DNA of 64,000 nucleotides from an uncultured Gemmatimonadales bacterium (GCA_963708135.1 OY970192.1:3072001-3136000), one strand, 5' to 3'. Positions 2,775 to 24,059 are shown, numbered from the stretch's first letter. Made by a program: numbers and translations. The notes: generated by a model from the letters alone, not told the origin.

Positions 2775-2899
2775 AGAGCGGTGGCCGCTGCGCCGCCTTC
2801 AGCGGCTTGCCCGCCGGGTGAAGTGAAGTCGTAGGCTGAGAACACGGGCTGGCGGGACGCGGCGCTGGGGGCCGCGTCGGCAACCGCCAGACGTTATAG
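2768..2899 (+). other. attC site 5 (family III, belongs to gene-less cassettes)
   Basis: GGATAAC-agaGCGGTGGCCG ... CGGCAACCGC-cagac-GTTATAG. Confidence 0.85.
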
Positions 2900-2944
2900 G
2901 ACATTTTCCACGTTGGTCTCCCATCTGAGCAAGGAAAGTCATCG

Positions 2945-3736
2945 ATGGCTTTGAAACCCTGTCGCGAGTGCTCGCATAAGATCAGCACCGAGGCCAATTC
3001 ATGCCCGAATTGCGGAGCTAAAAATCCGACAGGATCGAGAATCTCCGCGAAACAGGGATGCCTCGGCTGCCTAGGACTAATCGTTCTTATGGTCATTATG
3101 ACGTCTCTAATCAATACGTGCGGGTCCGGTTCCACCCCGTCATCAAGCGTGATGTCGCACTCTAGAGTGAACCCGTCGGTCAATCCCGACAGTGTTTGGG
3201 CCGCCGGTAATGCCTCACAATTAGGCTCACTGTCTCGACGCGATTCAATGAGGTATGACCATATCACACGCACGACTGGCCTCACGCCAGCTGAGCCCAA
3301 ATTCCATGAACGCGTTGTCGCGATGCGAATTGCAGACGCGCGAGACGCGTCGAAGCGTCCTGAATCCAGGGGAGACGCGTTGACCTTCCTATCACTTGCA
3401 GACACTCCATTTACTTCCACACAATCCGCCGCGATCAAGTCTTTGCGCACATTGATATCGGCGTCTATAGATCGTGACACTAGGAAGGCGGGCATCCCGC
3501 TTCGCCGCGCCTATGCGGCGACGTTGAGAAACAAATTTCTCGACGACGCTCTTGATATTAAGGTTTCCGCACTCGGCGACGACGCGACTACGCTGAAACT
3601 TGAATTCGTCCTGTTCAATGACGTGTGGAGTCACAAGCTAGTAACCGGGGAGTTCCAGCAGTTGCTTCGCCAGATGGGATTCAAGCGGCTTCGGATGACG
3701 GACGGGTACGACTGGGGATACTACTGGGATCTATAG
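2945..3736 (+). CDS. Zinc-ribbon membrane protein/lipoprotein of unknown function (cassette cargo)
   Basis: CRECSH...CPNCG zinc ribbon followed by a hydrophobic segment; fills the cassette. Confidence 0.8.
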   Translation: MALKPCRECSHKISTEANSCPNCGAKNPTGSRISAKQGCLGCLGLIVLMVIMTSLINTCGSGSTPSSSVMSHSRVNPSVNPDSVWAAGNASQLGSLSRRDSMRYDHITRTTGLTPAEPKFHERVVAMRIADARDASKRPESRGDALTFLSLADTPFTSTQSAAIKSLRTLISASIDRDTRKAGIPLRRAYAATLRNKFLDDALDIKVSALGDDATTLKLEFVLFNDVWSHKLVTGEFQQLLRQMGFKRLRMTDGYDWGYYWDL

Positions 3737-3772
3737 CCGGCCACGCGAGACATTCGCACGATGGAAAACGTC

Positions 3773-3926
3773 CTATAACTGGACAATTGCCGCAGAGCCC
3801 GCCGGGATTGAGACCACGCGGCATTTAATAGGTAGGCCGGACGGGACATGACTCCGCTCAGGCGCGAGATCGCGTTGCTCACTCGCTTCCTCGCTGCGTC
3901 ACGTCGGCAATCGCTTAACGTTATCT
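3773..3926 (+). other. attC site 6
   Basis: CTATAAC ... ATTGCCG ... CGGCAAT ... GTTATCT. Confidence 0.75.
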
Positions 3927-4179
3927 GGAATGCGCTGGAGCGCTGAACAGCAATGATGTGCTCCGCCGCCCCGCCCCGGTTCCAGCGGCTTTGCGCTCGA
4001 GGTGCGATGGACGTTGACGGGCCGGGATGCGTCAGAGGAGGCAGGAGCTGGTGAGGCGCCGTGCGTCGGCCCCGCCGGTGCGGTTCGGCAGCGGGGCACG
4101 TGCAGGTCGCCGGCGGCGAGTTGCGACCGTTCCAGAGTGCACGGCTGTGGCAGGACGCGAGAGGCGCACTCCAGATAAC
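3920..4179 (+). ncRNA. Gene-less cassette, variant B, copy 1
   Basis: Only an 8-codon ORF at its start; essentially identical to 5847-6106; shares blocks with variant A. Confidence 0.55.
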
Positions 4180-4304
4180 GGAGCGGTGACCGCTTCGCCG
4201 CCTTCGGCGGCTCGCCCGCCGGGTGAAGTGAAGTCCAAGCCCGAAAAGATGGGCCGGCGGGACACGGCGCTGCGCGCCACGTCGGTAACCGAGAGACGTT
4301 ACGC
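4173..4304 (+). other. attC site 7 (family III)
   Basis: AGATAAC-ggagCGGTGACCG ... CGGTAACCG-agagac-GTTACGC. Confidence 0.85.
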
Positions 4305-4336
4305 GCCATACTGCGGGTGAAAAGTGGGGTCTTACA

Positions 4337-5038
4337 TTGAGCAACTGGTATCACCTGTACTGCGATGAGACGGGTATCGGGTCTGGACCGTCGTTCGATC
4401 TTGGTGCGCTCCAGATGTCGCCAGCACGAGCCCGGATCCTTGCGGAAGGGCTATTGCGGGTCCGTCACGAATACGGGCTCCGAGCCGAGATGAAGTGGAC
4501 GAAGGTATCTCTTGGGATGCTGGATGCGTACAAGGCCTTCGTGGATGTATTCCTGAACTGCCAGTACACGAGGCTCTATCACCTCAAAGTCCGCAAGCGC
4601 CACGATTGGACGGCGTTTGGCCGATCTGAGAATGCACGCTTCTTCAAGGCCTACTACGTTTTCCTGAGAATGCACATGCGGTCGCATTCGCGATATGTGG
4701 TGCAGGTGGATGACAAGCCAGGCAAGCGATATCGCTGGAGCCAGGTCTACTACGCCATCAACGCCGCGGCCGCTCGTGATTACGGAGTGACGCGGAAGCA
4801 GATTGCGGACTTCCGGCCGATGGATTCCAAGAGATCGGACCTGCTGCAGCTCGTGGATGTTGTGCTGGGTGCTATGACGTCGGTTGCTTCGGCCCCAGCG
4901 AAGCTGAATCTTCTCACCTATGTGCGGGATCGTGTTGCCTCAAGGGAGGCGGAGGTGAAGAGCGGCGAGTGGTCACCTACAGTGGTCGCCAAGTCCTCCT
5001 CGGCACTGGGAAGTCGTACGGCGCGTAACAAACGGTGA
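4337..5038 (+). CDS. DUF3800-family protein (cassette cargo)
   Basis: YCDETG N-terminal motif, EMKWTK, and DSKRSDLLQLVD C-terminal motif. Confidence 0.75.
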   Translation: MSNWYHLYCDETGIGSGPSFDLGALQMSPARARILAEGLLRVRHEYGLRAEMKWTKVSLGMLDAYKAFVDVFLNCQYTRLYHLKVRKRHDWTAFGRSENARFFKAYYVFLRMHMRSHSRYVVQVDDKPGKRYRWSQVYYAINAAAARDYGVTRKQIADFRPMDSKRSDLLQLVDVVLGAMTSVASAPAKLNLLTYVRDRVASREAEVKSGEWSPTVVAKSSSALGSRTARNKR

Positions 5039-5116
5039 GCGCCTGCGCAGCTCCGCTGCTTCGGCCCTGCGGGACACCCGCCTCCGGCGGGCGTCGCTCA
5101 CCTAAGAACGTTATCT
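5023..5116 (+). other. attC site 8 (family II)
   Basis: GCGTAAC-aaacGGTGAGCG ... CGCTCACC-taagaac-GTTATCT. Confidence 0.85.
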
Positions 5117-5149
5117 GACATGAGCCGCACGACGTGATTAGATTGGCGG

Positions 5150-5428
5150 ATGAGCCCGAGCGAGCGATTCGAGCGACCCGAGTGGTGGGAGTGGGAGCTC
5201 GCGTTCACGGCTCACGTCGAAGCACGCATGGAGGAGCGTGGATTCTCCGAGGTCGATCTGCGCGAGATGCTCGAGGATGCATTGGATCTGGAGCAGAGCC
5301 GGAATCCGAGGCGGTGGCTGGTCCGCACCCGCTCGGGCGGCGCGCCGTGGATCGTCGTGGTTGAGCCCGATCCTGATGAACAGGTGCTTCTGATCGTCAC
5401 CGCTTACCTTCGAGACGCCCGCCGATGA
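5150..5428 (+). CDS. DUF4258-like putative toxin
   Basis: FTAHVEARMEERG ... LLIVTAY; coupled to the next gene. Confidence 0.7.
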   Translation: MSPSERFERPEWWEWELAFTAHVEARMEERGFSEVDLREMLEDALDLEQSRNPRRWLVRTRSGGAPWIVVVEPDPDEQVLLIVTAYLRDARR

Positions 5429-5694
5429 AAACTCTCACCGTCCAAGTGACCTACCGCAAAGGCGAGCCCTTTGCCGCCTACATTTACCTGGCTGCGAAGC
5501 CGGGCCAGAAGAGTGCACGGACCGAAGACGTCAGTCCCGACCTCGTCATCGACTACGCGGCCGATGGCACCCCGCTCGGGATTGAAATCGTTTCGCCGGG
5601 ATTCGTCACCCTCGACGAAATCCACGCCGTCTTCGACCGACTCGGCCTGGGACGCCCGGAACCATCGGAATTGGCGCCGCTCAGGGCGGCCTGA
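5425..5694 (+). CDS. DUF2283-like putative antitoxin
   Basis: AAYIYL ... VIDYAADGTPLGIEI motif; ATGA overlap. Confidence 0.75.
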   Translation: MKTLTVQVTYRKGEPFAAYIYLAAKPGQKSARTEDVSPDLVIDYAADGTPLGIEIVSPGFVTLDEIHAVFDRLGLGRPEPSELAPLRAA

Positions 5695-5735
5695 CTTCCC
5701 CAGCGGGTGGGCCAGCCCCGGCAGCGGCTCACATC

Positions 5736-5853
5736 AGATAACAAACGGTGAGCGCCTGCGCGGCTTCGCCGCTCCGGCCCTTCGGGACACCGAATCCTCA
5801 GCGCCGCGCTGCGGCGCCTCCGGTTCGGCGTCGCTCACCTACAAGCGTTATCT
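5736..5853 (+). other. attC site 9 (family II)
   Basis: AGATAAC-aaacGGTGAGCG ... CGCTCACC-tacaagc-GTTATCT. Confidence 0.85.
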
Positions 5854-6106
5854 GGAATGCGCTGGAGCGCTGAACAGCAATGATGTGCTCCGCCGCCCCG
5901 CCCCGGTTCCAGCGGCTTTGCGCTCGCGGTGCGATGGACGTTGACGGGCCGGGATGCGTCAGAGGAGGCAGGAGCTGGTGAGGCGCCGTGCGTCGGCCCC
6001 GCCGGTGCGGTTCGGCAGCGGGGCACGTGCAGGTCGCCGGCGGCGAGTTGCGACCGTTCCAGAGTGCACGGCTGTGGCAGGACGCGAGAGGCGCACTCCA
6101 GATAAC
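5847..6106 (+). ncRNA. Gene-less cassette, variant B, copy 2
   Basis: Duplicate of 3920-4179. Confidence 0.55.
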
Positions 6107-6231
6107 GGAGCGGTGACCGCTTCGCCGCCTTCGGCGGCTCGCCCGCCGGGTGAAGTGAAGTCCAAGCCCGAAAAGATGGGCCGGCGGGACACGGCGCTGC
6201 GCGCCACGTCGGTAACCGAGAGACGTTATGT
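6100..6231 (+). other. attC site 10 (family III)
   Basis: Identical interior to attC 7. Confidence 0.85.
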
Positions 6232-6283
6232 GAAATCGCCCGGAGGCCGCTGAACCCGCTGCGGTTGAGAGACCCCACCTGAC

Positions 6284-6312
6284 TTGTCGTAGCATGGGTG
6301 CCGTGCTATCAT
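6284..6312 (+). promoter_or_regulatory. Putative promoter/operator of higBA
   Basis: TTGTCG-17 bp-TATCAT; TAGCATGG...CCGTGCTA inverted repeat; ATG at 6318. Confidence 0.6.
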
Positions 6313-6317
6313 GCTAG

Positions 6318-6611
6318 ATGATTCGATCATTCCGGGATGCGGCGACCGAGGATCTGTTCTACGGTCGTTCGACGAAGGCAGCTCGGAAAGCGCTTCCACT
6401 GTCGCTGTGGCAGAAGGCGTCGGTGAAGCTCGATGCGGTCGACTCGGCCGGGATGTTGGACGACCTACGAGTTCCGCCAGGGAATCGATTGGAAGCCTTG
6501 AAGGGAGATCGTCGCGGTCAGCACAGCATCCGAATCAACAGCCAGTACCGGATCTGTTTTCGATGGACGGACGCAGGACCGGAAGACGTAGAAGTCGTCG
6601 ACTACCATTGA
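6318..6611 (+). CDS. higB: HigB toxin (plasmid maintenance killer family)
   Basis: PPGNRLEALKGDRRGQHSIRINSQYRICF...VVDYH. Confidence 0.92.
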   Translation: MIRSFRDAATEDLFYGRSTKAARKALPLSLWQKASVKLDAVDSAGMLDDLRVPPGNRLEALKGDRRGQHSIRINSQYRICFRWTDAGPEDVEVVDYH

Positions 6612-6619
6612 GGCATACT

Positions 6620-6946
6620 ATGGTCCGAGTACCGACCCATCGCCGACCGACGCACCCGGGGGAGATGCTCCTCGAGGAGTTTCTCGGCCCGATGGAGCTG
6701 ACGCAGCGGGAGCTTGCCGACGCGATCGCAGTCCCGTATCAGCGGGTCAACGAGATCGTGAACGGACGACGGGGAGTGACCCCGAGCACTGCACTGCGGC
6801 TATCGACCTACTTCGGCACGTCGACGGACTTCTGGATGAACCTTCAGCTGCGATGGGATCTGTACCACGCTCGAGAGGCCGAGGCCGACATCTTGAAGAA
6901 GATTCCTCGATACAAGTCTTCGAATCGCGACAGAGTAGGCGGATAG
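6620..6946 (+). CDS. higA: HigA antitoxin
   Basis: PTHPGEMLLEEFL ... FWMNLQLRWDL. Confidence 0.92.
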   Translation: MVRVPTHRRPTHPGEMLLEEFLGPMELTQRELADAIAVPYQRVNEIVNGRRGVTPSTALRLSTYFGTSTDFWMNLQLRWDLYHAREAEADILKKIPRYKSSNRDRVGG

Positions 6947-6977
6947 CACGATTGAAGCCGGGCAGAGGGGCGACTTC

Positions 6978-7073
6978 ACATAACACACGGTGAGCGGCTA
7001 AGCGGCGTTCGCCGCTACGCCCCTACGGGACACCCCCCATGCGGCGGGCGTCGCTCACCTGGAAACGTTAGAA
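6978..7073 (+). other. attC site 11 (family II)
   Basis: ACATAAC-acacGGTGAGCG ... CGCTCACC-tggaaac-GTTAGAA. Confidence 0.85.
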
Positions 7074-7152
7074 GACATGCCGGGTTGACGGGCGGTGGTA
7101 CTGAGTACTATAGTACGGAGGACGTTGAAGCCGGGAGGCTCGTATCGAATTC

Positions 7153-7473
7153 GTGGCAACCCGCAGCTTCGAGAGCTCCGCGAAGAAGCTCCTGTCCGAA
7201 GAGGACCGGAGGCAGCTTGAGTTGCTCCTGCTGGGAGATCCACGACATGGCAAGGTGATTGAGCGCACTGGCGGTTTCCGGAAGGTGCGCTTCGCTCGAC
7301 CCAGCCGGCGTGAAGGGAAGAGCGGCGGTACTCGGGTGATCTACTATCTCCTCGATCGACGTGACCGGATCTACCTGCTCCTCGTGTACGCGAAGGGGGT
7401 GAAGGACACCCTCACCCGCACCGAGGAGAACGAACTTCGGAAGCTGGCAAAGGCATTGGAGGAAGAACGGTGA
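7153..7473 (+). CDS. RelE/HigB-2-like toxin (start uncertain)
   Basis: GKVIERTGGFRKVRF...GKSGGTRVIYY...LLLVYAK. Confidence 0.85.
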   Translation: MATRSFESSAKKLLSEEDRRQLELLLLGDPRHGKVIERTGGFRKVRFARPSRREGKSGGTRVIYYLLDRRDRIYLLLVYAKGVKDTLTRTEENELRKLAKALEEER

Positions 7474-7850
7474 CCAAGGCACGGAGGAAGGGTACGTTCG
7501 GGCAGGTGCTCATCGAGTCCGCAAGAGAGGCGGTGCAGATCGAGCGCGGTGAGGCACCCCCGGCTCGTGTCACCAAGCACACGGCTGCGGAAACGAGGGT
7601 GGCACCTCCGCCTCAATACGTGCCGGAACGTATCAAGGGAATCCGGGATGTCATGGCATTGTCCCAGCCTGTCTTCGCTGCGGCCTTGAATGTGAGTCCA
7701 GAGACAGTCCGCGCTTGGGAACAGGGGAAGAGGGAACCCGACGGCCCTACGCTTCGACTCCTCGAGGTAGCGGAGCAGCACCCCGAGGTGCTCCTTACAA
7801 AAGTGCGGGCCCGAAGGTCGAGGAAACGGCCCAGCGCCGAGATCCGGTAA
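7470..7850 (+). CDS. HTH antitoxin (HigA-2-like)
   Basis: LSQPVFAAALNVSPETVRAWEQGKREPDG. Confidence 0.85.
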   Translation: MTKARRKGTFGQVLIESAREAVQIERGEAPPARVTKHTAAETRVAPPPQYVPERIKGIRDVMALSQPVFAAALNVSPETVRAWEQGKREPDGPTLRLLEVAEQHPEVLLTKVRARRSRKRPSAEIR

Positions 7851-7892
7851 CGTGCCTTGGAATGACGCGGTCAGCGTCATGGCCGGCACGTC

Positions 7893-8007
7893 TTCTAACA
7901 CACGGTGAGCGCCTGCGCGGCTTCGCTCCGGCCCTTCGGGACACCGAATCCTCAGCGCCGCGTTGCGGCGCCACCGGTTCGGCGTCGCTCACCTGGAAAC
8001 GTTATGT
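7893..8007 (+). other. attC site 12 (family II)
   Basis: TTCTAAC ... GGTGAGCG ... CGCTCACC ... GTTATGT. Confidence 0.85.
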
Positions 8008-8038
8008 GAAATGGCGCTGGCGTTGGTAGATTGAGAGC

Positions 8039-8326
8039 ATGAGCAACGAACTGAGGCAGCTCCAGGAGCGGATCACCCCCAAGCTGCGTGAGCACGGCGT
8101 CGTCAAAGCCGCCGTGTTCGGCTCCCGCGCTCGCGGGGATGCCGGACCCGAGAGCGATCTCGATCTCCTGGTCGAGTTCGAGAAAGGTCGAACGCTCCTG
8201 GACCTCATCGGCCTTGAGCAGGATCTCACGGAGCTGCTCGGGACCGAGACGGAGGTGGTCACCTACCGATCGCTGCATCCGCTCCTGCGGGAGCGAATCC
8301 TCGCCGACCAGGTGCCGCTCCTGTGA
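8039..8326 (+). CDS. Minimal nucleotidyltransferase (MNT/MntA-like antitoxin)
   Basis: VFGSRARGD...SDLDLLVEF. Confidence 0.9.
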   Translation: MSNELRQLQERITPKLREHGVVKAAVFGSRARGDAGPESDLDLLVEFEKGRTLLDLIGLEQDLTELLGTETEVVTYRSLHPLLRERILADQVPLL

Positions 8327-8667
8327 AGGATCCGGACGTCTTACCCTATCTCGCTCATGTCCTCGAGAGCATCGAGGCGATCGAACGGTACACGCGCGGG
8401 ATGGAGGCGGCGGCATTCCTCAACGATTCCCAAGCACAGGATGCCGTCGTTCGGCGCCTCGAGATCATCGGCGAGGCTGTGAAGAACGTCGGCCCGGAGT
8501 TCCGGGCGGCGCATCCAGAGATTCCGTGGAAGCGTATCGCCGGACTTCGAGACGTCCTAATTCACCGCTACTTCGAGGTGGATCTTGAACTGACGTGGGA
8601 GACGGTTCAAGAGCGGCTCCCGACGTTCAAACAACAGGTCCAGGCGCTTCTCCAGCAGTTGGGCTGA
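8323..8667 (+). CDS. HEPN/DUF86 RNase toxin (HepT-like)
   Basis: IPWKRIAGLRDVLIHRYF (RxxxxH motif). Confidence 0.9.
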   Translation: MKDPDVLPYLAHVLESIEAIERYTRGMEAAAFLNDSQAQDAVVRRLEIIGEAVKNVGPEFRAAHPEIPWKRIAGLRDVLIHRYFEVDLELTWETVQERLPTFKQQVQALLQQLG

Positions 8668-8686
8668 ACCCGGACGGCGCCACTTC

Positions 8687-8804
8687 ACATAACAACCGGT
8701 GAGCGCCTTCGCGGCTTCGCCGCTCCGGCCCTTCGGGACACCGAATCCTCAGCGCCGCGATGCGGCGCCTCCGGTTCGGCGTCGCTCACCTAGAAACGTT
8801 ATCC
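8687..8804 (+). other. attC site 13 (family II)
   Basis: ACATAAC ... GGTGAGCG ... CGCTCACC-tagaaac-GTTATCC. Confidence 0.85.
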
Positions 8805-8855
8805 GCCAGCCCTTGGGATGCTATCTTGTAGGCATCAAGATCCTTGAGGAGCGCC

Positions 8856-9077
8856 ATGAAGACCTACGAGTTCACCGTCGTCATCGAGCGGGACGAAGAT
8901 GGCCGATTTGTGGCTATCGTACCCGCTTTGCAGGGCTGCTACACGGAAGGCGAAACGGAGCGAGAGGCTCGGGATCTCATCGAGGACGCGATCCGGCTTC
9001 ACCTTGAGGATCGACTCGAGCGAGGAGAAGCAATCCACCAGGAGGTGGGCAGCACGAGGGTACGGATCGCGGTATGA
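8856..9077 (+). CDS. hicB: HicB-family antitoxin (short)
   Basis: VIERDEDGRFVAIVPALQGCYTEGET. Confidence 0.88.
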   Translation: MKTYEFTVVIERDEDGRFVAIVPALQGCYTEGETEREARDLIEDAIRLHLEDRLERGEAIHQEVGSTRVRIAV

Positions 9078-9292
9078 ACCCGCGCCTGCCTTCCATGACC
9101 GCGCCAGAAGTGGTGCGGCTCCTGGAGCGGCATGGCTTTGAGCGAGTTCGGCAATCAGGATCCCACCTCATCCTCCGCCACACGGACGGACGCCGCGTCA
9201 CCGTCCCCGTGCATAAGTCCAAGGACCTCGGTCGCGGTCTTCTGAGCCGGATCATGAAGGACGCGGACCTCTCGATAGAAGACCTCAAATAG
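9074..9292 (+). CDS. hicA: HicA-family toxin
   Basis: GFERVRQSGSHLIL...VTVPVH. Confidence 0.88.
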   Translation: MNPRLPSMTAPEVVRLLERHGFERVRQSGSHLILRHTDGRRVTVPVHKSKDLGRGLLSRIMKDADLSIEDLK

Positions 9293-9446
9293 GTCGAACG
9301 GGCCGGCGGATAACAAACGGTTGGCGCCTGCGCGGCCTGCGGCCGCTCCGGAGAACCCGCCGCGGCCGCCTGGAAGCTGGTGCGGTTCGTGAGGTTTCGA
9401 AGGTGATCGCGCGCTGGAGGTTGTTGCGCGGCGGGTCGCCAACCTA

Positions 9447-10624: not shown

Positions 10625-10889
10625 GTTATCCGGAATGCGCTGGTGCGCTGAAGAGCAAGCGTGGGTGCCCCCCCTGCCACCCCGAGCCGGCGGTTTTTGC
10701 GCTCGCGGGCGTAGTGGACAATCGCGGCCGGGAGACTTCGCTGGACAGGGTGCTGGTCGGGCCGCCATGCGCTGCCAAGCCCGCTCGAGGAGTCGGTGTG
10801 CCAGGCAGGCGCCGCGCTGCTGGTGAGGCCGGTGCGGTTTCGAAGGAGCGCATGGCTGCTGCCGGCCGGGGGGGCGCACTCCGGATAAC
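10625..10889 (+). ncRNA. Gene-less cassette, variant C
   Basis: Same termini (GTTATCCGGAATGCGCTGGTGCGCTG ... GCGCACTCCGGATAAC) and GCTGGTGAGGC block as variants A and B; divergent interior. Confidence 0.5.
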
Positions 10890-11007
10890 AGCGCGGTGAC
10901 CGCTGCGCCGCCTTGCCCGCCCGAAAGCGTGCAGGGACTGTGATCAGGAACTTGGGCCGGCGGGACACGGCGCTGCGCGCCGCGTCGGGCACCGCTGAAC
11001 GTTATCC
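10883..11007 (+). other. attC site 15 (family III)
   Basis: GGATAAC-agcGCGGTGACCG ... CGGGCACCGC-tgaac-GTTATCC. Confidence 0.85.
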
Positions 11008-11259
11008 GGAATGCGCTGGCGCGCTGGGGAGTGAACCTGTTGTTCCCCTCCCCGCCCCGGATCCAGCGGTTTCGCGGGACCGGTGCAATCGATGATCCTG
11101 GCACACCGGGTTCGCGAGGCAGCAGCTGGTGAGGCGCCGGGCGCATTGTTCCTGTATCCGCGGCGTCGAGAGCCCGGCCGGAGTCGAAGCGTTTGTCGGC
11201 GCTGAGTTCCGGGCCGCGCCCGCCTTCCGCTGGAGGCGGAGGGGCGCACTCCGGATAAC
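11001..11259 (+). ncRNA. Gene-less cassette, variant A, copy 2
   Basis: Near-identical to 12078-12336. Confidence 0.55.
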
Positions 11260-15558: not shown

Positions 15559-15587
15559 TTGACGGCATGTAGTCGGTAGGATACACT
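15559..15587 (+). promoter_or_regulatory. Putative sigma70 promoter
   Basis: TTGACG-17 bp-TACACT; ATG at 15594. Confidence 0.6.
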
Positions 15588-15853
15588 TGAGCTATGATCG
15601 AAGTACGCAAGACGGAGCTCTTTGCTGGCTGGATCGACGGGCTGAAGGACGTCCGGGGGCGAGCCCGTGTGCTGGCGCGAATCGAGCGCCTTGCGGCGGG
15701 CAACCCCGGGGATGTCCAACCGGTTGGCGAAGGGGTTTCGGAGCTACGAGTGGATTATGGCCCAGGATATCGGGTGTACTACAGAAAGCGTGGGCAGAAG
15801 CTGATCATCTTGTTGGCCGGAGGGGACAAGAGCACACGGGCGAGAGATATCAA

Positions 15854-17614
15854 CCTCCCGTATTCACCACGCGTAGGTTGAGCCGATTGAGCGCGTGATT
15901 TGGAATTCGGCGGCGGCGTGCGTGGCGCCCGGGCTGATTACGGGGACAGCCCCCCTTTCCCCCGGCGCGCCGCCGACGGCTCCGTGCTCCGATCGCTCCC
16001 CGCCCGAGAAGGCCTACGCTGGAGTGGGCAGGGCCAGGGCGGCGGGGGAGCCGCGGGCCGAGTAGCGCCGGCTCATTTCTCGCCAGAAGCGCTGCCACAG
16101 GTGCGCGCGGCCCGCGTCGATGACGAGCGTGAGTCGTCGGCCGCTCACCAGCACGCGTCCCGCCGCTTTGAGCACGAGTTGGCGGAAGCGCTGGCGGGTC
16201 ATGACCTGACGTTCGCCGCACGAGACCAGTTCTGCGCCAGCTCTCAGCAGGTTGGCCGCGATGAGGCTCAGCAGCAGGCGCGCCTCGTTGGCGCCGAAGC
16301 TGTCGGTGTCGGGCTCGGGCGTGGCGACGCTCCGCCCGCGGTAGTGCTTCTTGGGCCGCGGCGCCGACGAGAGCGCCAGCGCCAGCGTGCTTTTCCAGTC
16401 CCCGAACTCCCGCTCGGCTTCTCCCCGCGCCCGGTAGCGCTCCAGCAGCGCCGGGCCGTCTACCTCTTCGGTGCTCGCGTTCGTGAGCAGGAAAAAATGG
16501 TCGAGGAACAGCTCCCCCTGCTCGTCCGAGCGCTCCAGCATCACGAGCACCACCCGGCGCGCATGGTCCCAGCGCCCGGCAGCATAGGTCAGCTCGTGCG
16601 TCCAGATCCGACCTTCGGCCGGCGGGTGTCCAGGCGGCCGCTTCAGGTACGGCGCCGCGAGTCTCTCCAGGCGTGCATTCCCACGCAGCCGGGCCACGTA
16701 GCGCACGCCCTCGTCCTCCAGCGTGGCCAGCAACTCGTTCTCCGGGAATCCCGCATCCATGCGCAGCCACACCTGCTCCGCCTGCGTCTTCGCCCAGAGC
16801 ACCGCGGGGACCACAAAGCCCAGCGCGCCTTGCGCCGTGTGCGCGTTTCCCTCTCGCAGCTCGGCCGCCAGGAAGTCTCCCAACTCCCAGCGCAGCACCA
16901 GCGGGTGGTAGCAGCAGCAGCCATAGTGCGCGTTCCACGAGCTGCCCGGCTGCAGCCCGTGCACTTCGACCGGCAGCGAATCCAGATCCAGCGTGACCTC
17001 CGCAACGCGCGGCGCGTTCCGGCCCCGCCGCCGCTCCGCACCCCGCAGCAGGAGCGTGGAAAGGCCCTGCCGGTTTCCCGGGTCGGCCAGCACCGCCAGG
17101 AGCCGCGACAGGGTTGGCTGAGAGGCCAGCCCGGAGGCCGCGCCCGCAGCCCCACCCCGCACCGGCGCCGTCCCCCGGCGCCGCGACACGGCCACGCGCA
17201 GCGCCGGATCGGCGCGCAGCAGGTCCGCATCCCGCTGGTCCGTCCATCCCTGCGCCAGCAGGAGCACCTGCGTGAGCATCAGCTCGAGGAAGTCGTGCGT
17301 GATCCGCGCGGGGTCGCGCGGGTCGTGCAGGTGGTGGTGGACCAGCGCCGGGAAGCCCAGCCGCTCCAGCAGCGCACGCAACAGCACCGCGCCCGCGTCC
17401 GAGGTCAGCCGCTCCGGTCGCGCCTCCACGCCCATCGAACGGTTGAAATCCAGCCGGAAAAGTGTACCTTGTTCTTCACCCATGGCGTGTTTGTCGTGTG
17501 GTCCGGAAGGATGGTTTGGTTTGCACCCCCATCTTACGGTCACACAGGCAGATGCGCCATGGGCGCTTACGCCCTACACAACCCCTCCACTAACCCGCTC
17601 GTGAATACGGCAGG
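15854..17614 (-). mobile_element. IS1380-family insertion sequence
   Basis: Inverted repeats CCT(C/G)CCGTATTCAC; 5-bp ATCAA target duplication. Confidence 0.9.
16014..17483 (-). CDS. IS1380 transposase
   Basis: LTSDAG, LASQPTLSR, LDLDS, RMDAGF and YRARGEAE motifs. Confidence 0.9.
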   Translation of the reverse strand: MGEEQGTLFRLDFNRSMGVEARPERLTSDAGAVLLRALLERLGFPALVHHHLHDPRDPARITHDFLELMLTQVLLLAQGWTDQRDADLLRADPALRVAVSRRRGTAPVRGGAAGAASGLASQPTLSRLLAVLADPGNRQGLSTLLLRGAERRRGRNAPRVAEVTLDLDSLPVEVHGLQPGSSWNAHYGCCCYHPLVLRWELGDFLAAELREGNAHTAQGALGFVVPAVLWAKTQAEQVWLRMDAGFPENELLATLEDEGVRYVARLRGNARLERLAAPYLKRPPGHPPAEGRIWTHELTYAAGRWDHARRVVLVMLERSDEQGELFLDHFFLLTNASTEEVDGPALLERYRARGEAEREFGDWKSTLALALSSAPRPKKHYRGRSVATPEPDTDSFGANEARLLLSLIAANLLRAGAELVSCGERQVMTRQRFRQLVLKAAGRVLVSGRRLTLVIDAGRAHLWQRFWREMSRRYSARGSPAALALPTPA

Positions 17615-17660
17615 ATCAAGGCGGCTCTCCGCCTGGCGCGCAATCTGGAGGAGTAGGATC

Positions 17661-17960
17661 ATGGCGAAGACTGTCACGAGCCGGTACGACGTAGCGGAGC
17701 ACCTCCGGACGCCGGAAGAGATGGCCGCGTATCTGGAGGCGTGTCTCGAGGAGGCGGACGGTGATGCGGCGTTTGTCGCCAAGGCGTTGGGCGACATTGC
17801 TCGAGCCAGAGGTATGAGCCAAGCGGCTCGCGATTCAGGCCTGTCGCGGGAGAGCCTCTACAAGGCCTTATCTGGGGAGCGCACGCCTAGCTTCGATACG
17901 ATACTCAAGGTCGTCGGCGCACTTGGGCTGAAGCTCCATGCGGAGGCTGCGCAGGGCTGA
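17661..17960 (+). CDS. Addiction-module antidote (HTH antitoxin)
   Basis: YDVAEHL..EEMAAYL...ALGDIARARGMSQ...RESLYKALS. Confidence 0.9.
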   Translation: MAKTVTSRYDVAEHLRTPEEMAAYLEACLEEADGDAAFVAKALGDIARARGMSQAARDSGLSRESLYKALSGERTPSFDTILKVVGALGLKLHAEAAQG

Positions 17961-17983
17961 TAGGTCCGTCGTGACGCGGCTTC

Positions 17984-18001
17984 GGCTAATAGACGTTATG
18001 T
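17984..18001 (+). other. Collapsed attC site 21
   Basis: GGCTAAT-AGAC-GTTATGT; the preceding bases complement the cassette start at 15502. Confidence 0.65.
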
Positions 18002-18122
18002 GAAATCGCTTTGGGTCGTGCATGGAGCCCATGGACGGTAGGTTGAGGTCCCAGTAGCATGAATGCCCAGAGTCGCCAGTCACGGCGGCGGGCTGCCACA
18101 ACCAGGAGTCGAGTGCTTCGAC

Positions 18123-18812
18123 ATGGAGCGCAGATATCAGGATCACGAAATCCGGCAGATTCTCGATCTAGCCATCGATGAGGGAGACGCTCCTGCAGAG
18201 TCTCTTCCTGTGATCGATGGTTTGACCCTTCGTGAGTTGCAGGAGGTGGGGCGCGAGGTTGGGTTGCCTGAAGGTCGTATCACGCAGGCAGTCGCGGCAT
18301 TCGAAGCGCATGGGATATCGGTGCCTCGAGGCACCACCCTCGGATTGCCAACTTCCGTCGGTAGCATCGTGGCCCTCCCTCGTAGCCCATCTGAGCGAGA
18401 GTGGGAGCTGCTCATCGCCGAGTTGCGCACGACGTTTGGCGGAAAGGGCGTCGCGACCTCGTATGGTGGTCTGCGAGAGTGGTCACAGGGGACTGTGCAC
18501 GCGTTTGTCGAGCCAACCGAGACAGGACATCGGTTGCGATTGGCGGATTCGCGGATGACGGCGGTGGGCGGGATCGGTCTAGGAGGTTTCTTCTTGGCAT
18601 TTGCCCTCCTAATCCTCGTTGTTCTGCTCGGCAAGGACGACCCAGGCGTCAGATTCGCCGTTCCGGCGTTCTTCTCTCTGATCGGCGGTAGCCTGATCGC
18701 GGGAAGCGTGGTGGCGTTACCCAGGTGGGCCCGCGAACAAGAGAACCGCATGGCGCACATCAGCAGCCGTGCAGTATCACTGCTTGCCCCACCTGGACCG
18801 GCGGGGGAATGA
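18123..18812 (+). CDS. Hypothetical membrane protein with two C-terminal TM segments (cassette cargo)
   Basis: Clean ORF filling the cassette; two hydrophobic segments. Confidence 0.75.
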   Translation: MERRYQDHEIRQILDLAIDEGDAPAESLPVIDGLTLRELQEVGREVGLPEGRITQAVAAFEAHGISVPRGTTLGLPTSVGSIVALPRSPSEREWELLIAELRTTFGGKGVATSYGGLREWSQGTVHAFVEPTETGHRLRLADSRMTAVGGIGLGGFFLAFALLILVVLLGKDDPGVRFAVPAFFSLIGGSLIAGSVVALPRWAREQENRMAHISSRAVSLLAPPGPAGE

Positions 18813-18899
18813 GCGCGCTGGCCAGTGCTCTTCAGGAGCGCATCGCGGGAAACAAGGGGAACGGATGAGGGGCATGGCCGCGCGCGAGCACGCGAAATC

Positions 18900-19056
18900 A
18901 CATAACAAGAGAGTTGCGCCTGCGCGGCCTTCGGCCGCTCCGGAGAACACCGGCGCTGAAATGGTGCTGTTGGAAGCGGCGGTAGATATCGTTGACGATC
19001 GCAGCCTCGTCGGGACGTGAGGACGCGCCGGCGTCGCAACTCAAAGAACGTTAAGC
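18900..19056 (+). other. attC site 22
   Basis: ACATAAC-aaGAGAGTTGCG ... CGCAACTC-aaagaac-GTTAAGC. Confidence 0.85.
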
Positions 19057-19288
19057 GCCATTGGCCGGCAAGAATGAATGATTAAAGCGTGAAGCGGGAC
19101 AAAACAATCGCCTTCCTTTTCCTCCCCGCGCTTTGGGTACCGATTGCTTCGCAAGAGAGCATTCTCATCGTCGCATGAAGTCAAAGGGACGATTCCTCAG
19201 AAAGCGCCCGTCATTGACCCCTATATTTCACGAGAGTACTCTGGTCCCAAGACGACGTAACCAGGATCTCACCAGCCGGCAGTGCAAA

Positions 19289-20668
19289 ATGACTCGTGTG
19301 TCACGGTACATCATCCTCTTCGTCATCCTGAGCTTCTGCCGGCAGGGACGCACGCTCGCGCAAAGCGCACCCCACGACTGGGCCTACCTTGATCCGGTCT
19401 CTGACTCCGTCGTGGGCATCAGTCTCTTCAAGGCGTATGCTCATCTCGGGGTCAGGCCGCACACAACCGTGATTGTCGCGATCATCGACAATGGGTTCGA
19501 CATCGAGCATCCGGATCTCAAAAGAGTCATCTGGACTAACCCGCGGGAAATCGCGGGCAATCATATAGACGACGATCACAATGGTTATGTCAACAATGTG
19601 CACGGCTGGAATTTCCGTTCTTCGCCCGACGGTGAACTCGCCGAGAACGACCAGATGGAATCAACGCGAATCTATGCACAATGGAGAGGCCGATTCGAGG
19701 CCGCCGACACAGGCGGTATGATCCCGGAGGTCAGACGGCAGCTGGATTTATACCGCACAGCGAAACAGGCATACCTCGAGAAACTGAAGGGTGAGTTGAC
19801 CGAGGACGAGCGAGAGTTCGCATACAACGCAGAATATGATCCGAGCCGGATCATCGGTGATCATGCCACAGATCCGACCGAGAAATCCTATGGAAGCCGT
19901 TCCATGAGGCTGACTCCGCAGCTTACGCACGGCACTCACGTGGCCGGCATCGTCGCAGCGGATCGCACGAATGGTGTCGGTGTAATGGGTGTCGCTGACC
20001 ATGTACTCATCATGCCTGTAGTTGCGACTACCGCTGCCGGTGACGAGCGCGACAAGGATGTCGCCAATGCGATCCGGTACGCCGTTGATAACGGCGCACG
20101 CATTATCAACATGAGCTTTTCGAAGATCTTGTCGCAGTACAAGTGCGTCGTTGATGATGCAGTACGGTATGCGGAGGCGAACAATGTTCTGATCATCCAC
20201 GCCGCCGGCAACGACGGACAGAACGACGATTCCGTGCCACATTATCCGACAGCTGATTTCTGCACCGGCGGAAGGGCAAAGAATTTCATCACGGTTGGCT
20301 GGAGCAGAGCGAAGTTTGACGAACGACTCGCGCACCCTTATTCCGACTTTGGAGCACACACCGTAGATATCTTCGCGCCGGGTAGCGATATCTATTCGAC
20401 AGTGCCCGGAGGGTATGACTACAAATCGGCCAGCAGCATGTCTACTGCGTTTGTTTCGGGTGTGGCGGCGCTGCTGCTTTCCTACTTTCCGGACCTCTCG
20501 GCTGTGCAGCTTAAAGACTTGATCCTGCAATCGGCGTTCAAGCCGGACGTGCTGGTGAACAAGCCCGGCACCAACGAAAAGGTTCCTTTTCGCAGCCTGT
20601 CGGTGAGCGGTGGCATCGTCAACGCTGGTGCCGCGGTAAGGTTGGCGCTACAGCGCTATGAGCATTGA
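19289..20668 (+). CDS. Secreted subtilisin-like S8 peptidase (cassette cargo)
   Basis: IIDNG, HGTHVAG, AAGND and variant Ser motif ASSMS; N-terminal signal peptide. Confidence 0.88.
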   Translation: MTRVSRYIILFVILSFCRQGRTLAQSAPHDWAYLDPVSDSVVGISLFKAYAHLGVRPHTTVIVAIIDNGFDIEHPDLKRVIWTNPREIAGNHIDDDHNGYVNNVHGWNFRSSPDGELAENDQMESTRIYAQWRGRFEAADTGGMIPEVRRQLDLYRTAKQAYLEKLKGELTEDEREFAYNAEYDPSRIIGDHATDPTEKSYGSRSMRLTPQLTHGTHVAGIVAADRTNGVGVMGVADHVLIMPVVATTAAGDERDKDVANAIRYAVDNGARIINMSFSKILSQYKCVVDDAVRYAEANNVLIIHAAGNDGQNDDSVPHYPTADFCTGGRAKNFITVGWSRAKFDERLAHPYSDFGAHTVDIFAPGSDIYSTVPGGYDYKSASSMSTAFVSGVAALLLSYFPDLSAVQLKDLILQSAFKPDVLVNKPGTNEKVPFRSLSVSGGIVNAGAAVRLALQRYEH

Positions 20669-20843
20669 CACATTCTCAGCAATCGTTGCCTCGACCGGTC
20701 GCGCCTGCAGCCGATCTCGGTTGAGTATCACGCTCCCGTTCAGGGTAGCGCTGAGCGCTGGATGTCGCGAAAGGTCGTCAAACGTAGCGGAATCGATCTC
20801 TTGATCTCCAACACGGCGGCGTTGCCGGACCGGCCAGCGGCGA

Positions 20844-20871
20844 GCCTAACGGCAGATAATAGACGTTATAC
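20844..20871 (+). other. Collapsed attC site 23
   Basis: GCCTAAC-ggcagaTAATAGAC-GTTATAC. Confidence 0.6.
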
Positions 20872-20935
20872 GCCATGCGCCTACCCTGGCGGATAGGCGC
20901 AGAAGCATACGCGAACAGGACCGGAGGCTGGGAAT

Positions 20936-21217
20936 CTACTTGCGAGCGGGTGGGGCAGGCATTCCGTAGAGCATGCCGTGCACGCTGATGTCCTCGTCCA
21001 CATCGGGCCAGTGGATGCCCTGGCCGGCACCAATGAGGCGATAGTTGCCGCGTTGCTCCGGCGTAGCCTGCGATAGGCGCCAGGACCACGCGAGTGCTCA
21101 TTCCACGCCTCACGGATGAGAGCGAGATTGGCTTGGATTACCCCGCGGATTCGGTTTAGCTCCTTGGGGGAGAACGCATAGGACGAGGCCAGCGTCAGCG
21201 GTTCGAGCCAGAACTTA
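20936..21217 (-). pseudogene. Remnants of a DUF4160/DUF2442 putative TA pair
   Basis: KFWLEPL...EAWNEH cut by IS256; GIHWPDVDEDISV fragment with an internal deletion. Confidence 0.7.
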
Positions 21218-22615
21218 GGGCCAAGTGTTGGCGTTCCAAAGCAAAGAGGTATCTCCAGAAGGTGTGGAAACGAGCAGAAGGCGGTGACACCTTTCGGTTG
21301 AGCCATCAACCACGGGCCTCGTGCCGGCACGAAAGGAGCCACCGCCGTGTCAAAGGTAACCAAGGAAGCGTCCTCGTCGTCAAGCGTGATATGGGGACAG
21401 CTGGAGGGCTTTGCCCGCGAGCAGGTTCAGGTATTCGTCCAGCGGCTGCTCGAGGAAGAGATCGAAGGGCTCCTGGGCCGGCGGAAGTCGGAGCGGCGAG
21501 AGCCCGGATCGGAGCCGGTCTAGCGGAACGGCTACGGCAAGGCGCGTAGGCTGGCGTTGTCGAACGGCACGATCAAGGTTCGGCGCCCGCGGGTCCGAGG
21601 GCTGGAAGAGCGGTTCGAGAGCCGAATCCTTCCGCTGTTCAAGCGGCGCACGGAGGAAGTCAGCCATCTCCTGCCCCAGCTCTACCTGCACGGGCTGGCG
21701 CTCGGCGACTTCGAGCTCGCGCTGAGGGGGCTGCTGGGGGACGCTGCTCCCCTTTCGGCTGCTTCGATCGCTCGGCTGAAGGCGCAGTGGCAGCTCGAGT
21801 TCCAGGAGTGGCGGAGCCGTTCGCTGGCCGAGCTCGACATCGTGTACTGCTGGGCGGATGGCCTGTACGTAAAGGCCGGCATCGACGACGGCAAGGCGGC
21901 GCTCCTGGTGATCATCGGTGGGACCCGCGAGGGCGAGAAGGTCGTGCTCGCCGTGGAGAGCGGGCAGCGGGAGTCGCGCGAGTCGTGGCTGGGCGTACTG
22001 CGCGACCTGAAGGCCCGCGGCATGAACGCGCCCCGACTCCTGGTCGCCGACGGCCACCTGGGCATCTGGGCCGCGGGCGCCGAGATCTGGCCGCGGTGCG
22101 AGGAGCAGCGCTGCTGGAATCACAAGATGGTCAACGTGCTGGACCAGGTTCCGAGGAAGCAGCAGGCGGCCGTCCGCCAGCACCTGAGAGGAATGATGTA
22201 CGCCGAGAGCAGGGCTGAGTGCGAGAAAGCGCGTGACCGGTGCGTGAAGCAGTTCGAGCGGCTCTACCCCAAGGCGATGGCGGCGCTCAAGCGGGACTGG
22301 GAGCGGATGGTCACCTTCTTCTCCTTCCCCCACGAGCACTGGGTCCACCTGCGCACCACCAACATCGTCGAGTCGCCCTTCGCCTCTGTGCGGCTCAGGA
22401 CCACGGCCGCAAAGCGCTACACGCGGGTCGAGAACGCCACGGCGTTGATCTGGAAGCTGCTCCTCGTAGCGGAGAAGACGTTCCGGCGGCTCAACGCCGC
22501 ACACCTGCTCGCTGCCGTTTCCGCGGGCGCAAAGTAGGTCGACGGCATCCCCGTCACCAGTCAGTCCGAAAGGGCCGCCGCCTGACGCCGTTTACACACC
22601 TATTAACGTGACCTC
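21218..22615 (+). mobile_element. IS256-family element; transposase has in-frame TAG stops at 21521 and 22535
   Basis: RNGYGK, WADGLY, QRCWNHK and RTTNIVES motifs; ends only approximate. Confidence 0.85.
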
Positions 22616-22663
22616 ATACTCTGACTCAATTGGCCTACGACTTTGTCTCTGCTAACCTCCTTC

Positions 22664-23779
22664 ATGGCCGAAACCATCCGCTCCGTACTGAGCGCACCGT
22701 ATCCGCCGGGAAGCCGCTTTCAAACCCGCGGCGAGCTGTACCGCTTCGCCCTGCGCCTGTTCTTCCTTTTGGTCGCCCTTGTCGCACCCATCATGTTCCT
22801 CCGGGCCAACTGGAGCCGCACCGGATGGGATCGAGACACCGTGCCCATTCACGTGGCTGCGCGGCGGATCCAGGACGGCAAGCCCCTCTACCCGGGTCCG
22901 AGCGGTTACACTCCGCTGAGGCCCGCTCTGGTTGGAGATCGCCTGGCCTACCCGCCGTTTCTGCCGGCGGCAGTTTCGTGGGCGGCGGACAGAGATTTCC
23001 CGGCGTTCACCCGCTTATTCTACGTTGCCGACCTGCTCGCCGTGCTCGTCTACGCGATCGCGCTGGCACGCATTGCAACCGGGCGCGTGCGGCCTCTGGA
23101 CGTCGGGGTGGCCGCGGGGGCGGTCTTCGCTAGCCCGCTGGCCCTTGGGGCGATGTCCATGGGCAACCCGGAGCCCATTCTCTGGGCTCTCTACTCCCTC
23201 GCGATCGCGTTCCCGGTATTTCGCGGCGCCGGGTTTCTGATGGCAGGCTCAGTGAAGCTGTTCGGGTTCTGGCCTCTGGCGGTGGCAGCCGTTCGAGATC
23301 GACGACGGACTCTGATCTCTGCCTCCGTTGCCGCGCTCGCCCTCGCCGCTCTAGGAATCGGCGTTCTCGGCGCTCCAGGGCTGCTTCAGGCGATGGTCAA
23401 CTGGTTCCGCTACTCCATGCCGGAGAGCGCGCAGGGGAGTTTCTTCTACGCGAACGTCTCCGTCAGCTTTGCCGTGGTGCGACTGGCTCGCCACCTCGGG
23501 TGGCAATACACCGGTGGTCCCCTTCCATTACTCGCAAGGATATGGCTCTTCGGCGCGGGCGTGACGGCCCCGCTCGTCACGGGCTGGATGACCCGTAATC
23601 GGAGCACGGATGTCCAATGCGCCGCTGTGCTCGTGGCGGCCCTGGCCTTTTCACCGATCTGCTGGTCGGAATACTCAGCCGTCCTTCTTCTACCCGGGGC
23701 CCTCTGGCTCCGCGTCCGCGCGCGGCTCCCGGAGCCGGAGCCCGCACAGGTGCCGCCCGAATCGGTCTATCATATCTGA
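22664..23779 (+). CDS. Polytopic membrane protein, GT87/DUF2029-like glycosyltransferase
   Basis: PLY...AYPPF motif, MGN, VKLF, FSPICWSEY; many TM segments. Confidence 0.65.
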   Translation: MAETIRSVLSAPYPPGSRFQTRGELYRFALRLFFLLVALVAPIMFLRANWSRTGWDRDTVPIHVAARRIQDGKPLYPGPSGYTPLRPALVGDRLAYPPFLPAAVSWAADRDFPAFTRLFYVADLLAVLVYAIALARIATGRVRPLDVGVAAGAVFASPLALGAMSMGNPEPILWALYSLAIAFPVFRGAGFLMAGSVKLFGFWPLAVAAVRDRRRTLISASVAALALAALGIGVLGAPGLLQAMVNWFRYSMPESAQGSFFYANVSVSFAVVRLARHLGWQYTGGPLPLLARIWLFGAGVTAPLVTGWMTRNRSTDVQCAAVLVAALAFSPICWSEYSAVLLLPGALWLRVRARLPEPEPAQVPPESVYHI

Positions 23780-23945
23780 ACACCGCTGCATGGCAGCAGA
23801 TGGCGGCGAACTTGCTCCACGGCCGCCGTGGCGACACCGCGCGGCCGTTGCCATAAGCGCGCCGCTGCCACCCCGCGTGCCCAGGGACACGGCGACGGCA
23901 GCTCGTAAGCAACGGGCTCAAAGCAAACGGATTACGGCGCACGGC

Positions 23946-24059
23946 GTACAACACGAGCGTTCCCGCTGCGCTCGCGTTCGCTCGCTTGCCGCTTCGCGGA
24001 CACCCCTGCGCTTCGCTTCGCGCCGCTGCGGGGTGTCGGGAACGCCTGGAACGTTCTAT
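23946..24059 (+). other. attC site 24 (last in the array)
   Basis: GTACAAC-acgaGCGTTCCCG ... CGGGAACGC-ctggaac-GTTCTAT. Confidence 0.75.

Follow-up and report, generated by a model that had tools for sequence, protein, structure and literature searches.

Cassette ends of an integron-like array in a Gemmatimonadales genome carry private 17-bp inverted repeats with a nearly fixed mismatch at position 11

Introduction

Why should the first bases of a gene cassette be complementary to the last bases of the same cassette over some 17 bp, and why should the eleventh pair of this stem be kept mismatched? The question is raised by a row of gene cassettes in a 64,000-nucleotide (nt) stretch of DNA from an uncultured Gemmatimonadales bacterium of soil (GCA_963708135.1, OY970192.1:3072001-3136000), hereafter the window. 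Positions 1-24059 of the window hold the distal part of the row, which starts 4 kb upstream in the directly adjoining stretch (L009; G000:C1:3056001-3072000). Each cassette opens with GTTA and ends in TAAC, after which comes an imperfect palindrome, ~90-155 nt long and closing on the GTT of the next cassette. The original prediction, made from the window alone, had read the complementarity as a stem extension formed in the excised circle of an ordinary integron cassette, and had left it between a determinant for the integrase or a host factor and a footprint of how cassettes are created. That interpretation is partly supported by the analysis described here. The explanation that we favor, with a probability of roughly 0.6, is that the private inverted repeat would form the basal (R) stem of a folded single-stranded site in an integron-like system, served by a recombinase that belongs to a sister group of IntI and lacks the IntI-specific insert; it draws on sequence comparison and predicted folds.

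The inverted repeat at the cassette ends

With the G of GTT numbered as position 1, the first 24-26 nt of each cassette were set against the reverse complement of its last 24-26 nt, up to and including its own AAC. There are 23 cassettes in the window, spanning 274-23952, and 8 more in L009; together they comprise 31 cassettes with 21 distinct start/end pairs in 17 independent families. In all 23 window cassettes the start is complementary to the cassette's own 3' end, with the pairing reaching to about position 17. At position 11 (+11) an A at the start faces a C at the end in 18 of the 23 in an ungapped comparison and in 22 when indels of 1-2 nt are allowed, which adds the cassettes starting at 934, 1814, 2520, and 19050; the cassette at 17995 is the only one in the window that lacks the pair. 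Seventeen of the 23 have at least five matches at positions 12-17, and in 12 the pairing is uninterrupted over 14-18 bp with only +11 excused. The six stems quoted in the original prediction are all exact in sequence and position, and the near-invariance that it claimed for the A/C pair holds at these counts.

The repeat is not a product of chance: across the 17 families, own start and own end match at 76 of 102 bases in positions 12-17, compared with a mean of 39 and a maximum of 64 in 100,000 permutations of the partners. Own positions 13-17 match at frequencies of 0.59-0.88, position 11 is matched in none of the 17 families, and from position 18 onward own pairs are no better than foreign ones. 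The inverted repeat is real, private to each cassette, and of defined length, about 17 bp. Because both arms come from the same cassette, the stem exists only once the cassette is circularised; when the end of one cassette is instead set against the start of the next, as the two lie in the array, pairing is near background, and the prediction that the stem belongs to the circle is thereby upheld. The +11 pair is A·C on the top strand and, as had been anticipated, a T·G wobble on the bottom strand.

A gene-less cassette that recurs along the row provides a view of the arms over time. Its subfamilies are 59-87% identical inside, and both 16-nt arms are kept in them save for one compensated change at position 7. 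This family is used alone, as a count of compensatory versus single-sided changes across homologous cassettes is invalid where nested candidates share one end.

Comparison with classical integrons

Pairing beyond the 7-nt boxes is already a property of classical cassettes, in which 9-11 consecutive complementary nucleotides are usual (Bouvier 2009, PMC2727003). The system described there resembles the present array in pairing a cassette with its own end past the boxes; the portion of that paper available mentions no conserved mismatch, and in the present array pairing takes up again past the mismatch and continues for 6-8 bp more. Classical integrons are frequent in the same phylum, with an IntI above the cut-off of model TIGR02249 in 124 of 301 Gemmatimonadota genomes (a tally that includes the unpublished genome G157). 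In the genomes of this phylum that were examined, intI has its cassettes downstream, on its own strand, and no array was found on the textbook cassette side of the classical intI genes. Arrays for comparison were defined by hand, in place of a structure-only site finder (AAC, complementary 7-mers, GTT) that was too noisy and missed nearly all classical sites.

In the classical array L112 (genome G103; 17 cassettes), own ends match at 0.88 at positions 11 and 12, at ~0.5 at positions 13-14, and at background beyond; in L114 (G215; 11 cassettes), the match is 0.73 at position 11, 0.45 at position 12, and background beyond. Pairing thus reaches 11-12 in these two arrays, and 13-14 in some classical cassettes, and R stems measure 11-14 bp in L112, L114, and a third array, L115 (G238). 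Over positions 13-17 the classical arrays match at 0.18-0.53, with a background of 0.24-0.35. Six class 1 cassettes from four plasmids, read by eye, pair over 11 bp (blaVIM-66), 12 bp with two mismatches (aadA1), 12 bp with one mismatch (aac(6')-31), 8 bp (blaIMP-1/-10), 12 bp (aac(6')-Il), and 9 bp (dfrA33). The +11 position is paired in 15 of 17 cassettes of L112, 8 of 11 of L114, and 4 of 6 of class 1, and none of these 34 classical cassettes has a fixed +11 mismatch or pairing that resumes beyond it. A generic extension and +11 bias, which the original prediction had named as a refutation, is contradicted by these 34. Since pairing to about position 11 is generic and in print, the new part is the +11 mismatch together with the further 6-8 bp. 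The observation of pairing beyond the 7-nt box stands, then; up to positions 11-12 it is not new, and what is special is confined to positions 12-17 and the mismatch.

The layout as a whole is that of a classical integron: behind a recombinase gene come a junction and then the row of cassettes, with the gene on the cassette strand as in sedentary chromosomal integrons. Each site is an imperfect palindrome set between ...AAC and GTT..., the boundary of a cassette falls at the GTT, the start pairs with the cassette's own R'', and the cargo consists mostly of toxin-antitoxin pairs and small unknown genes. The differences lie in the recombinase, which has the insert in IntI and lacks it here; in the R stem, 17-19 bp with a fixed +11 mismatch here and 9-12 bp fully paired classically; and in the bulges of the folded site, described below.

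The recombinase beside the array

The only candidate recombinase is a protein of 343 residues encoded at L009:10828-11859, on the same strand as the cassettes. The first GTT junction (L009:11981) lies 122 nt past its stop codon, and the start of the first cassette, a copy of the gene-less one, forms the right half of that junction. Against TIGR02249, the integron integrase model, the protein scores 216.9 bits and does not reach the cut-off of 265; the match is split in two and leaves out model positions 179-234, the region of the IntI-specific insert. In an alignment, both insert blocks are absent from this recombinase and present in two classical IntI proteins of the phylum. The protein exceeds the cut-off of NF040815 ("XerA / integron integrase") and misses those of the XerD model (206.3 versus 329.6) and the XerC model (200 versus 335.15). 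The genome, a single contig with a completeness of 97.65%, encodes no classical IntI above the cut-off, and its own XerD (above cut-off, 353.7 bits) and XerC-like gene lie elsewhere. The protein is of Xer-like length and shares its fold families with the Xer recombinases (XerC/XerD and archaeal XerA). Unlike these, which act at a single dif site, it stands beside a cassette array and falls under the XerC and XerD cut-offs. Xer recombinases bind arms of ~11 bp, and on that measure +11 would sit at the outer edge of the arm.

A quickly built tree separates 24 insert-less recombinases from 12 classical IntI proteins as two groups, with an SH-aLRT value of 97 on the joining branch, and both stand apart from the XerC, the XerD, and another tyrosine recombinase of this genome. 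The insert-less recombinases would accordingly be a sister group of IntI, a placement that is provisional because the tree has three outgroup rows only, keeps the insert columns, and carries no bootstrap.

The N-terminal ~70 residues (L009:10828-11050) form a domain without a Pfam match that is conserved at 23 array-bearing loci and absent at 18, mostly of the Bacteroidota and Ignavibacteriota types. A role for this domain as reader of the distal stem was considered and rejected, since loci without it (36 cassettes, 18 loci) have the same stem profile as those with it (90 cassettes, 23 loci).

Related loci in other phyla

One genome per species was scanned with the recombinase, which yielded 80 loci with proteins 39-59% identical to it. 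In many of these, a scan anchored on GTT...AAC revealed the same stems immediately downstream of the recombinase gene. In a further scan, designed not to select for the feature and conditioned solely on identity at positions 1-9 and a start of the form GTTA-NNN-G, 127 distinct candidate cassettes were found downstream of the recombinase at 42 loci, compared with 3 hits in 617 kb of upstream sequence; among loci with at least 1 kb of downstream sequence, 40 of 49 hold candidates. At +11, A at the start stands against G in the reverse-complemented end in 101 of the 127, and this combination is the majority at 36 of the 42 loci; the reverse, G against A, occurs in 8, and the position is matched in only 6%. 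The candidates match at 0.69-0.87 over positions 12-17, at ~0.45 at positions 18-19, and at background from position 20. The record titles of these loci carry ten phylum-level labels: Bacillota, Bacteroidota, Ignavibacteriota, Spirochaetota, Gemmatimonadota, Latescibacterota, Kryptoniota, Saccharibacteria, WOR-3, and Dehalococcoidia.

The recombinases of the relatives resemble the one described above. All 12 that were scanned score under the IntI cut-off, the insert is absent from all 8 that were aligned, and a like GTT junction lies ~70-300 nt behind the gene. A recombinase without the insert, upstream and on the cassette strand, private stems of 17-19 bp, and an A/C pair at +11 are found in the present array and likewise at the 42 related loci, which are provisionally grouped as I2-less integron-like arrays. 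At one Spirochaetota locus, a run of cassettes (L063:17393-20046) has the +11 pair reversed, with G at the start and A on the end side, which suggests an inversion of this stretch of the array.

Predicted folds of the sites

Minimum-energy DNA folds were computed for circularised bottom strands; they are predictions, not structures. In the folds predicted for sites of this array, a basal stem measuring 15-20 bp leads through an internal loop (6 nt on the 5' side by 3 nt) to an L stem of ~8 bp. In the relatives the predicted basal stem has a median length of 18 bp, and beyond it there is in most cases a 5'-side bulge of 3-4 nt. A pair of single-base bulges on the 3' side with a spacing of 4-7 bp, the known signature of extrahelical bases (Nivina 2016), is predicted in none of 17 sites of this array and none of 39 sites from 18 related loci. 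In classical sites of the same phylum, the pattern is seen in 14 of 17 (L112) and 5 of 11 (L114), and all 11 sites of L114 have at least one such bulge. Where classical sites have paired single-base bulges, the present array and its relatives have an unpaired stretch of 3-6 nt on the 5' side of the bottom strand. In these predictions, the bulges are lost together with the protein insert.

With insert and bulges both absent, a comparison with Vibrio or class 1 integrons is one between two systems. The assumption of an ordinary integron with a cognate IntI, made in the original prediction, does not survive these results.

The strand preference of the predicted folds is modest. In 11 of 14 whole-site folds the bottom strand is the more stable of the two, with a mean advantage of 1.9 kcal/mol; when the R stem is considered by itself, the same holds in 15 of 17, with a mean advantage of 1.2 kcal/mol. 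The fold in array context is weaker than that of the circularised site by a mean of 9.4 kcal/mol (14 sites).

Interpretation of the stem and its mismatch

In the folded-site explanation, positions 1-10 would be the recombinase-binding arm, as in classical sites, in which pairing stops at 11-12. The additional 6-8 bp would clamp the hairpin of the free cassette, which would then be far superior as a substrate to the chimeric site of the array (by ~9 kcal/mol, predicted), and a stronger hairpin of the free cassette would favor capture over loss. The fixed T·G wobble may be an asymmetry mark that distinguishes bottom from top strand and R from L end, for the enzyme or for folding itself, and it would take over what extrahelical bases and the I2 helix do in classical integrons. 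This proposed role in marking strand and polarity can be put to the test. Evidence for selection on the stem comes from the comparison of sequences, in which length and mismatch are held across phyla and the arms are kept in diverged gene-less subfamilies.

Several points weigh against this explanation. The case for folding, for strand choice, and for a role of the wobble is inferred from sequence and from predicted energies, whose bias toward the bottom strand is slight and has the opposite sign in 3 of 14 whole-site folds; the recombinase is only a putative actor on these sites. In array context the R stem is left with only ~4 fixed pairs, and the explanation does not account for excision. 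The 127 candidates are not all independent, with 27 from one locus and some nested pairs. Position 10 is mismatched in 39% of them, mostly with T on the end side; as the bottom-strand pair at +10 is then often T·T, which is no wobble, the mark may consist in a local distortion and not in a G·T pair as such.

Other explanations account for part of the data. A11 and C11' could be read separately on double-stranded DNA, with the hairpin mismatch a by-product: A11 would belong to the R arm that a cassette lends to an attI-type junction, and C11' would keep R'' from being taken for such an arm. The semi-conserved word at the starts (G8 in 17 of 17 families, A11 in 16, T12 in 13), the A11 in 117 of the 127 candidate cassettes of the relatives, and the place of the first cassette's start in the junction behind the recombinase gene all fit this reading, which leaves unexplained both the pairing of the private positions 12-17 past the mismatch and the frequent fixed end-side base at +10. 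We consider it unlikely as the account of the stem; it is compatible with the folded-site explanation and not exclusive of it. A passive footprint of cassette birth, in which fold-back or template-switch copying placed the 5' end in inverted form beside the site and no present function remains, would fit arms that are private to each cassette and a first 17 nt that overlap none of the three longest open reading frames (ORFs) of at least 50 residues kept per cassette (0 of 17 families). The corresponding test on the 3' arm is unreliable in GC-rich DNA, where 6 of 17 overlaps came from ORFs judged spurious. No mechanism of cassette birth is known, as far as the available text of Cury 2016 goes, and a footprint has that freedom in its favor. 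Yet a footprint should decay and vary in length, and the stem ends at 17-19 bp across ten phylum labels; templated copying is unable to yield a fixed mismatch, and the same +11 pair is mismatched in most candidates; and the arms are conserved in gene-less subfamilies that have diverged inside. We regard a footprint as decidedly improbable. Between the two origins that the original prediction had left side by side, a determinant for the integrase is favored, because the stem is conserved across the ten labels and within diverged cassette families, with neither proven.

That there is nothing special here, extension and +11 bias being generic to all integron cassettes, would agree with the 9-11 complementary nucleotides given for most cassettes (Bouvier 2009), with pairing to 11-12 and in some cases 13-14 in classical arrays of the phylum, and with the 8-12 bp of class 1. 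It is at odds with a +11 pair that is matched in most classical cassettes and in none of the families here, and with the match over positions 13-17, which in the classical arrays is near background and lies below that of the present families; a generic origin is very improbable. A stem at the RNA level, closing the cassette transcript or its antisense for processing, stability, or termination, fits the position of the arms on either side of the coding part of each cassette and a +11 pair that would be G·U on antisense RNA. On sense RNA the pair is A·C, and the enclosed loops would measure 250-3000 nt; moreover, the stem is anchored exactly on the GTT/AAC crossover triplets and co-occurs with the recombinase gene, not with any RNA-processing gene. 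We give this reading hardly any weight.

In the literature found, from which subscription papers and the two sources of Bouvier's 9-11-nt figure were outside coverage, there is no description of cassette arrays with an insert-less recombinase, of private stems of 17-19 bp, or of the +11 mismatch, and an integron-like site with this R stem is probably an undescribed variant. Nearest to it, in the portions available, are the statement that the IntI insert "is not fully conserved" in a subgroup of integron-like recombinases (Smyshlyaev 2021) and the near absence of complete integrons from Firmicutes (Néron 2022). In the accepted account, integron integrases gained single-strand recombination through an I2 helix that docks the extrahelical bases of attC, and direct proof that I2 is causal is lacking, since its deletion kills IntI1 (Escudero 2020, PMC7790495). 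Sister recombinases without the insert, beside arrays with hairpin-like sites and a different asymmetry mark, offer the missing comparison and make the role of I2 testable with ordinary recombination assays. A broader proposal is put forward tentatively, at odds somewhat short of even: that insert-less "integrons" are an old sister lineage in at least 10 phyla, among them Bacillota, in which classical integrons hardly ever occur; that this lineage recombines folded single strands without I2 or extrahelical bases; and that in it a fixed T·G (or T·T) pair 10-11 bp from the crossover, within the long private stem, would mark strand and polarity and stop the reaction after one strand exchange. Were this proposal true, single-strand hairpin recombination would not have needed the acquisition of I2.

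The arrays also matter for annotation. Software that requires the IntI-specific domain would classify such an array as integrase-less, like the clusters of attC sites without an integron integrase termed CALIN (Cury 2016), which differ in having no integrase where a conserved recombinase gene lies directly upstream here. Tools of this kind probably miss such arrays in Bacillota, Bacteroidota, Ignavibacteriota, Spirochaetota, and others, or file them as integrase-less. The long private stem could serve as a practical signature of cassette boundaries.

Array layout and cassette mobility

Twenty-four recombination sites were located in the window, with 8 further junctions upstream in L009. All 24 comprise ...AAC, complementary L boxes, and GTT, in the R''/L''/L'/R' organization of integron sites. 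By Pfam, the cargo consists mainly of toxin-antitoxin pairs (Gp49/helix-turn-helix (HTH), HigB/HTH, RelE-like/HTH, nucleotidyltransferase/HepT, HicB/HicA twice, and ParE-like); DUF3800, DUF4258/DUF2283, an S8 subtilase, and a GT87-like protein account for the other matches. The gene-less cassette (~377 nt) is present in 12 copies of five subfamilies, several of them 100% identical, and its frames have no Pfam match. Six copies start in the window, at 2520, 3920, 5847, 10625, 11001, and 12078, and six in L009, at 11981, 12357, 13667, 14044, 14421, and 14798; a thirteenth, at L009:15155, lies outside the alignment.

Indirect evidence from sequence suggests that cassettes move as units with their boundary at the GTT. 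Identical copies of the gene-less cassette lie at several positions in the array, and a cassette of 934 nt is present twice (window 7067 and L009:12733) with 933 of 934 bases identical between unrelated flanks; the identity ends at -5 and +938, around the GTT triplets. In the contigs of one soil metagenome, no cassette circles or excision products were seen; one joint and loose ends in these contigs are accounted for by repeated sites followed by different cassettes, and the contigs speak neither for nor against circles. Four insertion sequences, with approximate ends, interrupt cassettes or sites within the array.

Individual cassettes of the window

All cassettes lie on the + strand. The junction at L009:15515-15535 has lost its GTT, with a run of A in its place; the cassette that follows ends at window position 134 with A, not C, at +11, and looks to be decaying. 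The next cassette (274..795; arms 274-290 and 779-795) is a decayed HicB/HicA-like copy of the one at 8798 (92%), in which R'' differs at positions 5-7 and the +11 A/C is retained. In the cassette with a Gp49-like toxin and HTH partner (934..1717), the arms pair with a 1-nt indel, then A/C and 10 matched bases; the ORF of its HTH antitoxin (1358-1804) reads through R'' (1717) and most of the site before its stop. A 1-nt indel is likewise present in the arms of the cassette at 1814..2394, whose ORF has no Pfam match, followed by A/C and 5 matched bases, and the gene-less cassette at 2520..2774 has a 1-nt deletion in its 5' arm with A/C at the equivalent position.

The cassette at 2893..3779 (arms 2893-2910 and 3762-3779), with an ORF of 263 residues without a Pfam match, has an 18-bp stem in which the +11 A/C is the sole mismatch. 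Downstream of it, the gene-less cassettes at 3920..4179 and 5847..6106, which have the same sequence, carry 16-bp stems, with A/C at +11 in the former. Between these two lie the cassettes of a DUF3800 protein (4298..5029; 14-bp stem, +11 A/C) and of a DUF4258 and DUF2283 pair (5110..5742), the latter with a 19-bp stem and mismatches at +10 (C/A) and +11 (A/C), both of which are wobbles on the bottom strand. Stems of 17 bp are found in the cassettes of HigB and its HTH antitoxin (6225..6984; +11 A/C), of the RelE-like protein with HTH partner (7067..7899, the duplicated one), and of the nucleotidyltransferase with HepT (8001..8693; +11 A/C).

The first of the two HicB and HicA cassettes (8798..9314) has a 15-bp stem, and its site (9308-10631) is split by an IS630-type insertion (DDE_3) at ~9446-10613. 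It is followed by gene-less cassettes of a diverged subfamily (10625..10889) and at 11001..11259, then by the second HicB and HicA cassette (11378..11938; +11 A/C) and another gene-less one (12078..12336), all four with 16-bp stems. The cassette at 12455..14610, with a 19-bp stem and A/C-type mismatches at +10 and +11, is interrupted by an IS21-type element (~12500-14160) whose IstB ORF (12646-13593) is on the minus strand.

In the next cassettes the pairing is in part weaker, as the original prediction had stated for those at 14752, 17995, and 19050. The cassette with the ParE-like pair on the minus strand (14752..15364) has the weakest stem, mismatched at positions 9, 11, and 12. The one at 15502..17990, interrupted by a DDE_Tnp_1_4 transposase (16014-17543, minus strand), has a 16-bp stem with A/C at +11, an R'' that ends in AAT, and a site whose centre is missing. 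In the cassette with a 249-residue ORF without a Pfam match (17995..18906), the stem is broken at +10 and +11 (AA versus AA), and in that of the S8 subtilase (19050..20850), whose site centre is also missing, a 2-nt indel in the arm pairing precedes the A/C. At the two centre-less junctions (17984-18001 and 20844-20871), the neighboring cassettes are in effect fused; R'', ending in AAT or in AAC plus a 10-nt R''-like remnant, joins the next GTT through the same 4 nt, and the junctions have an identical 13-nt string in common.

The last cassette (20865..23952) carries an IS256-type transposase (~21262-22537), whose frame is split into two ORFs, and a GT87-like membrane protein, and its 17-bp stem is mismatched at +4 and +11. 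The array ends in the last folded site (23946..24059), with R'' at 23946-23952 and R' at 24053-24059.

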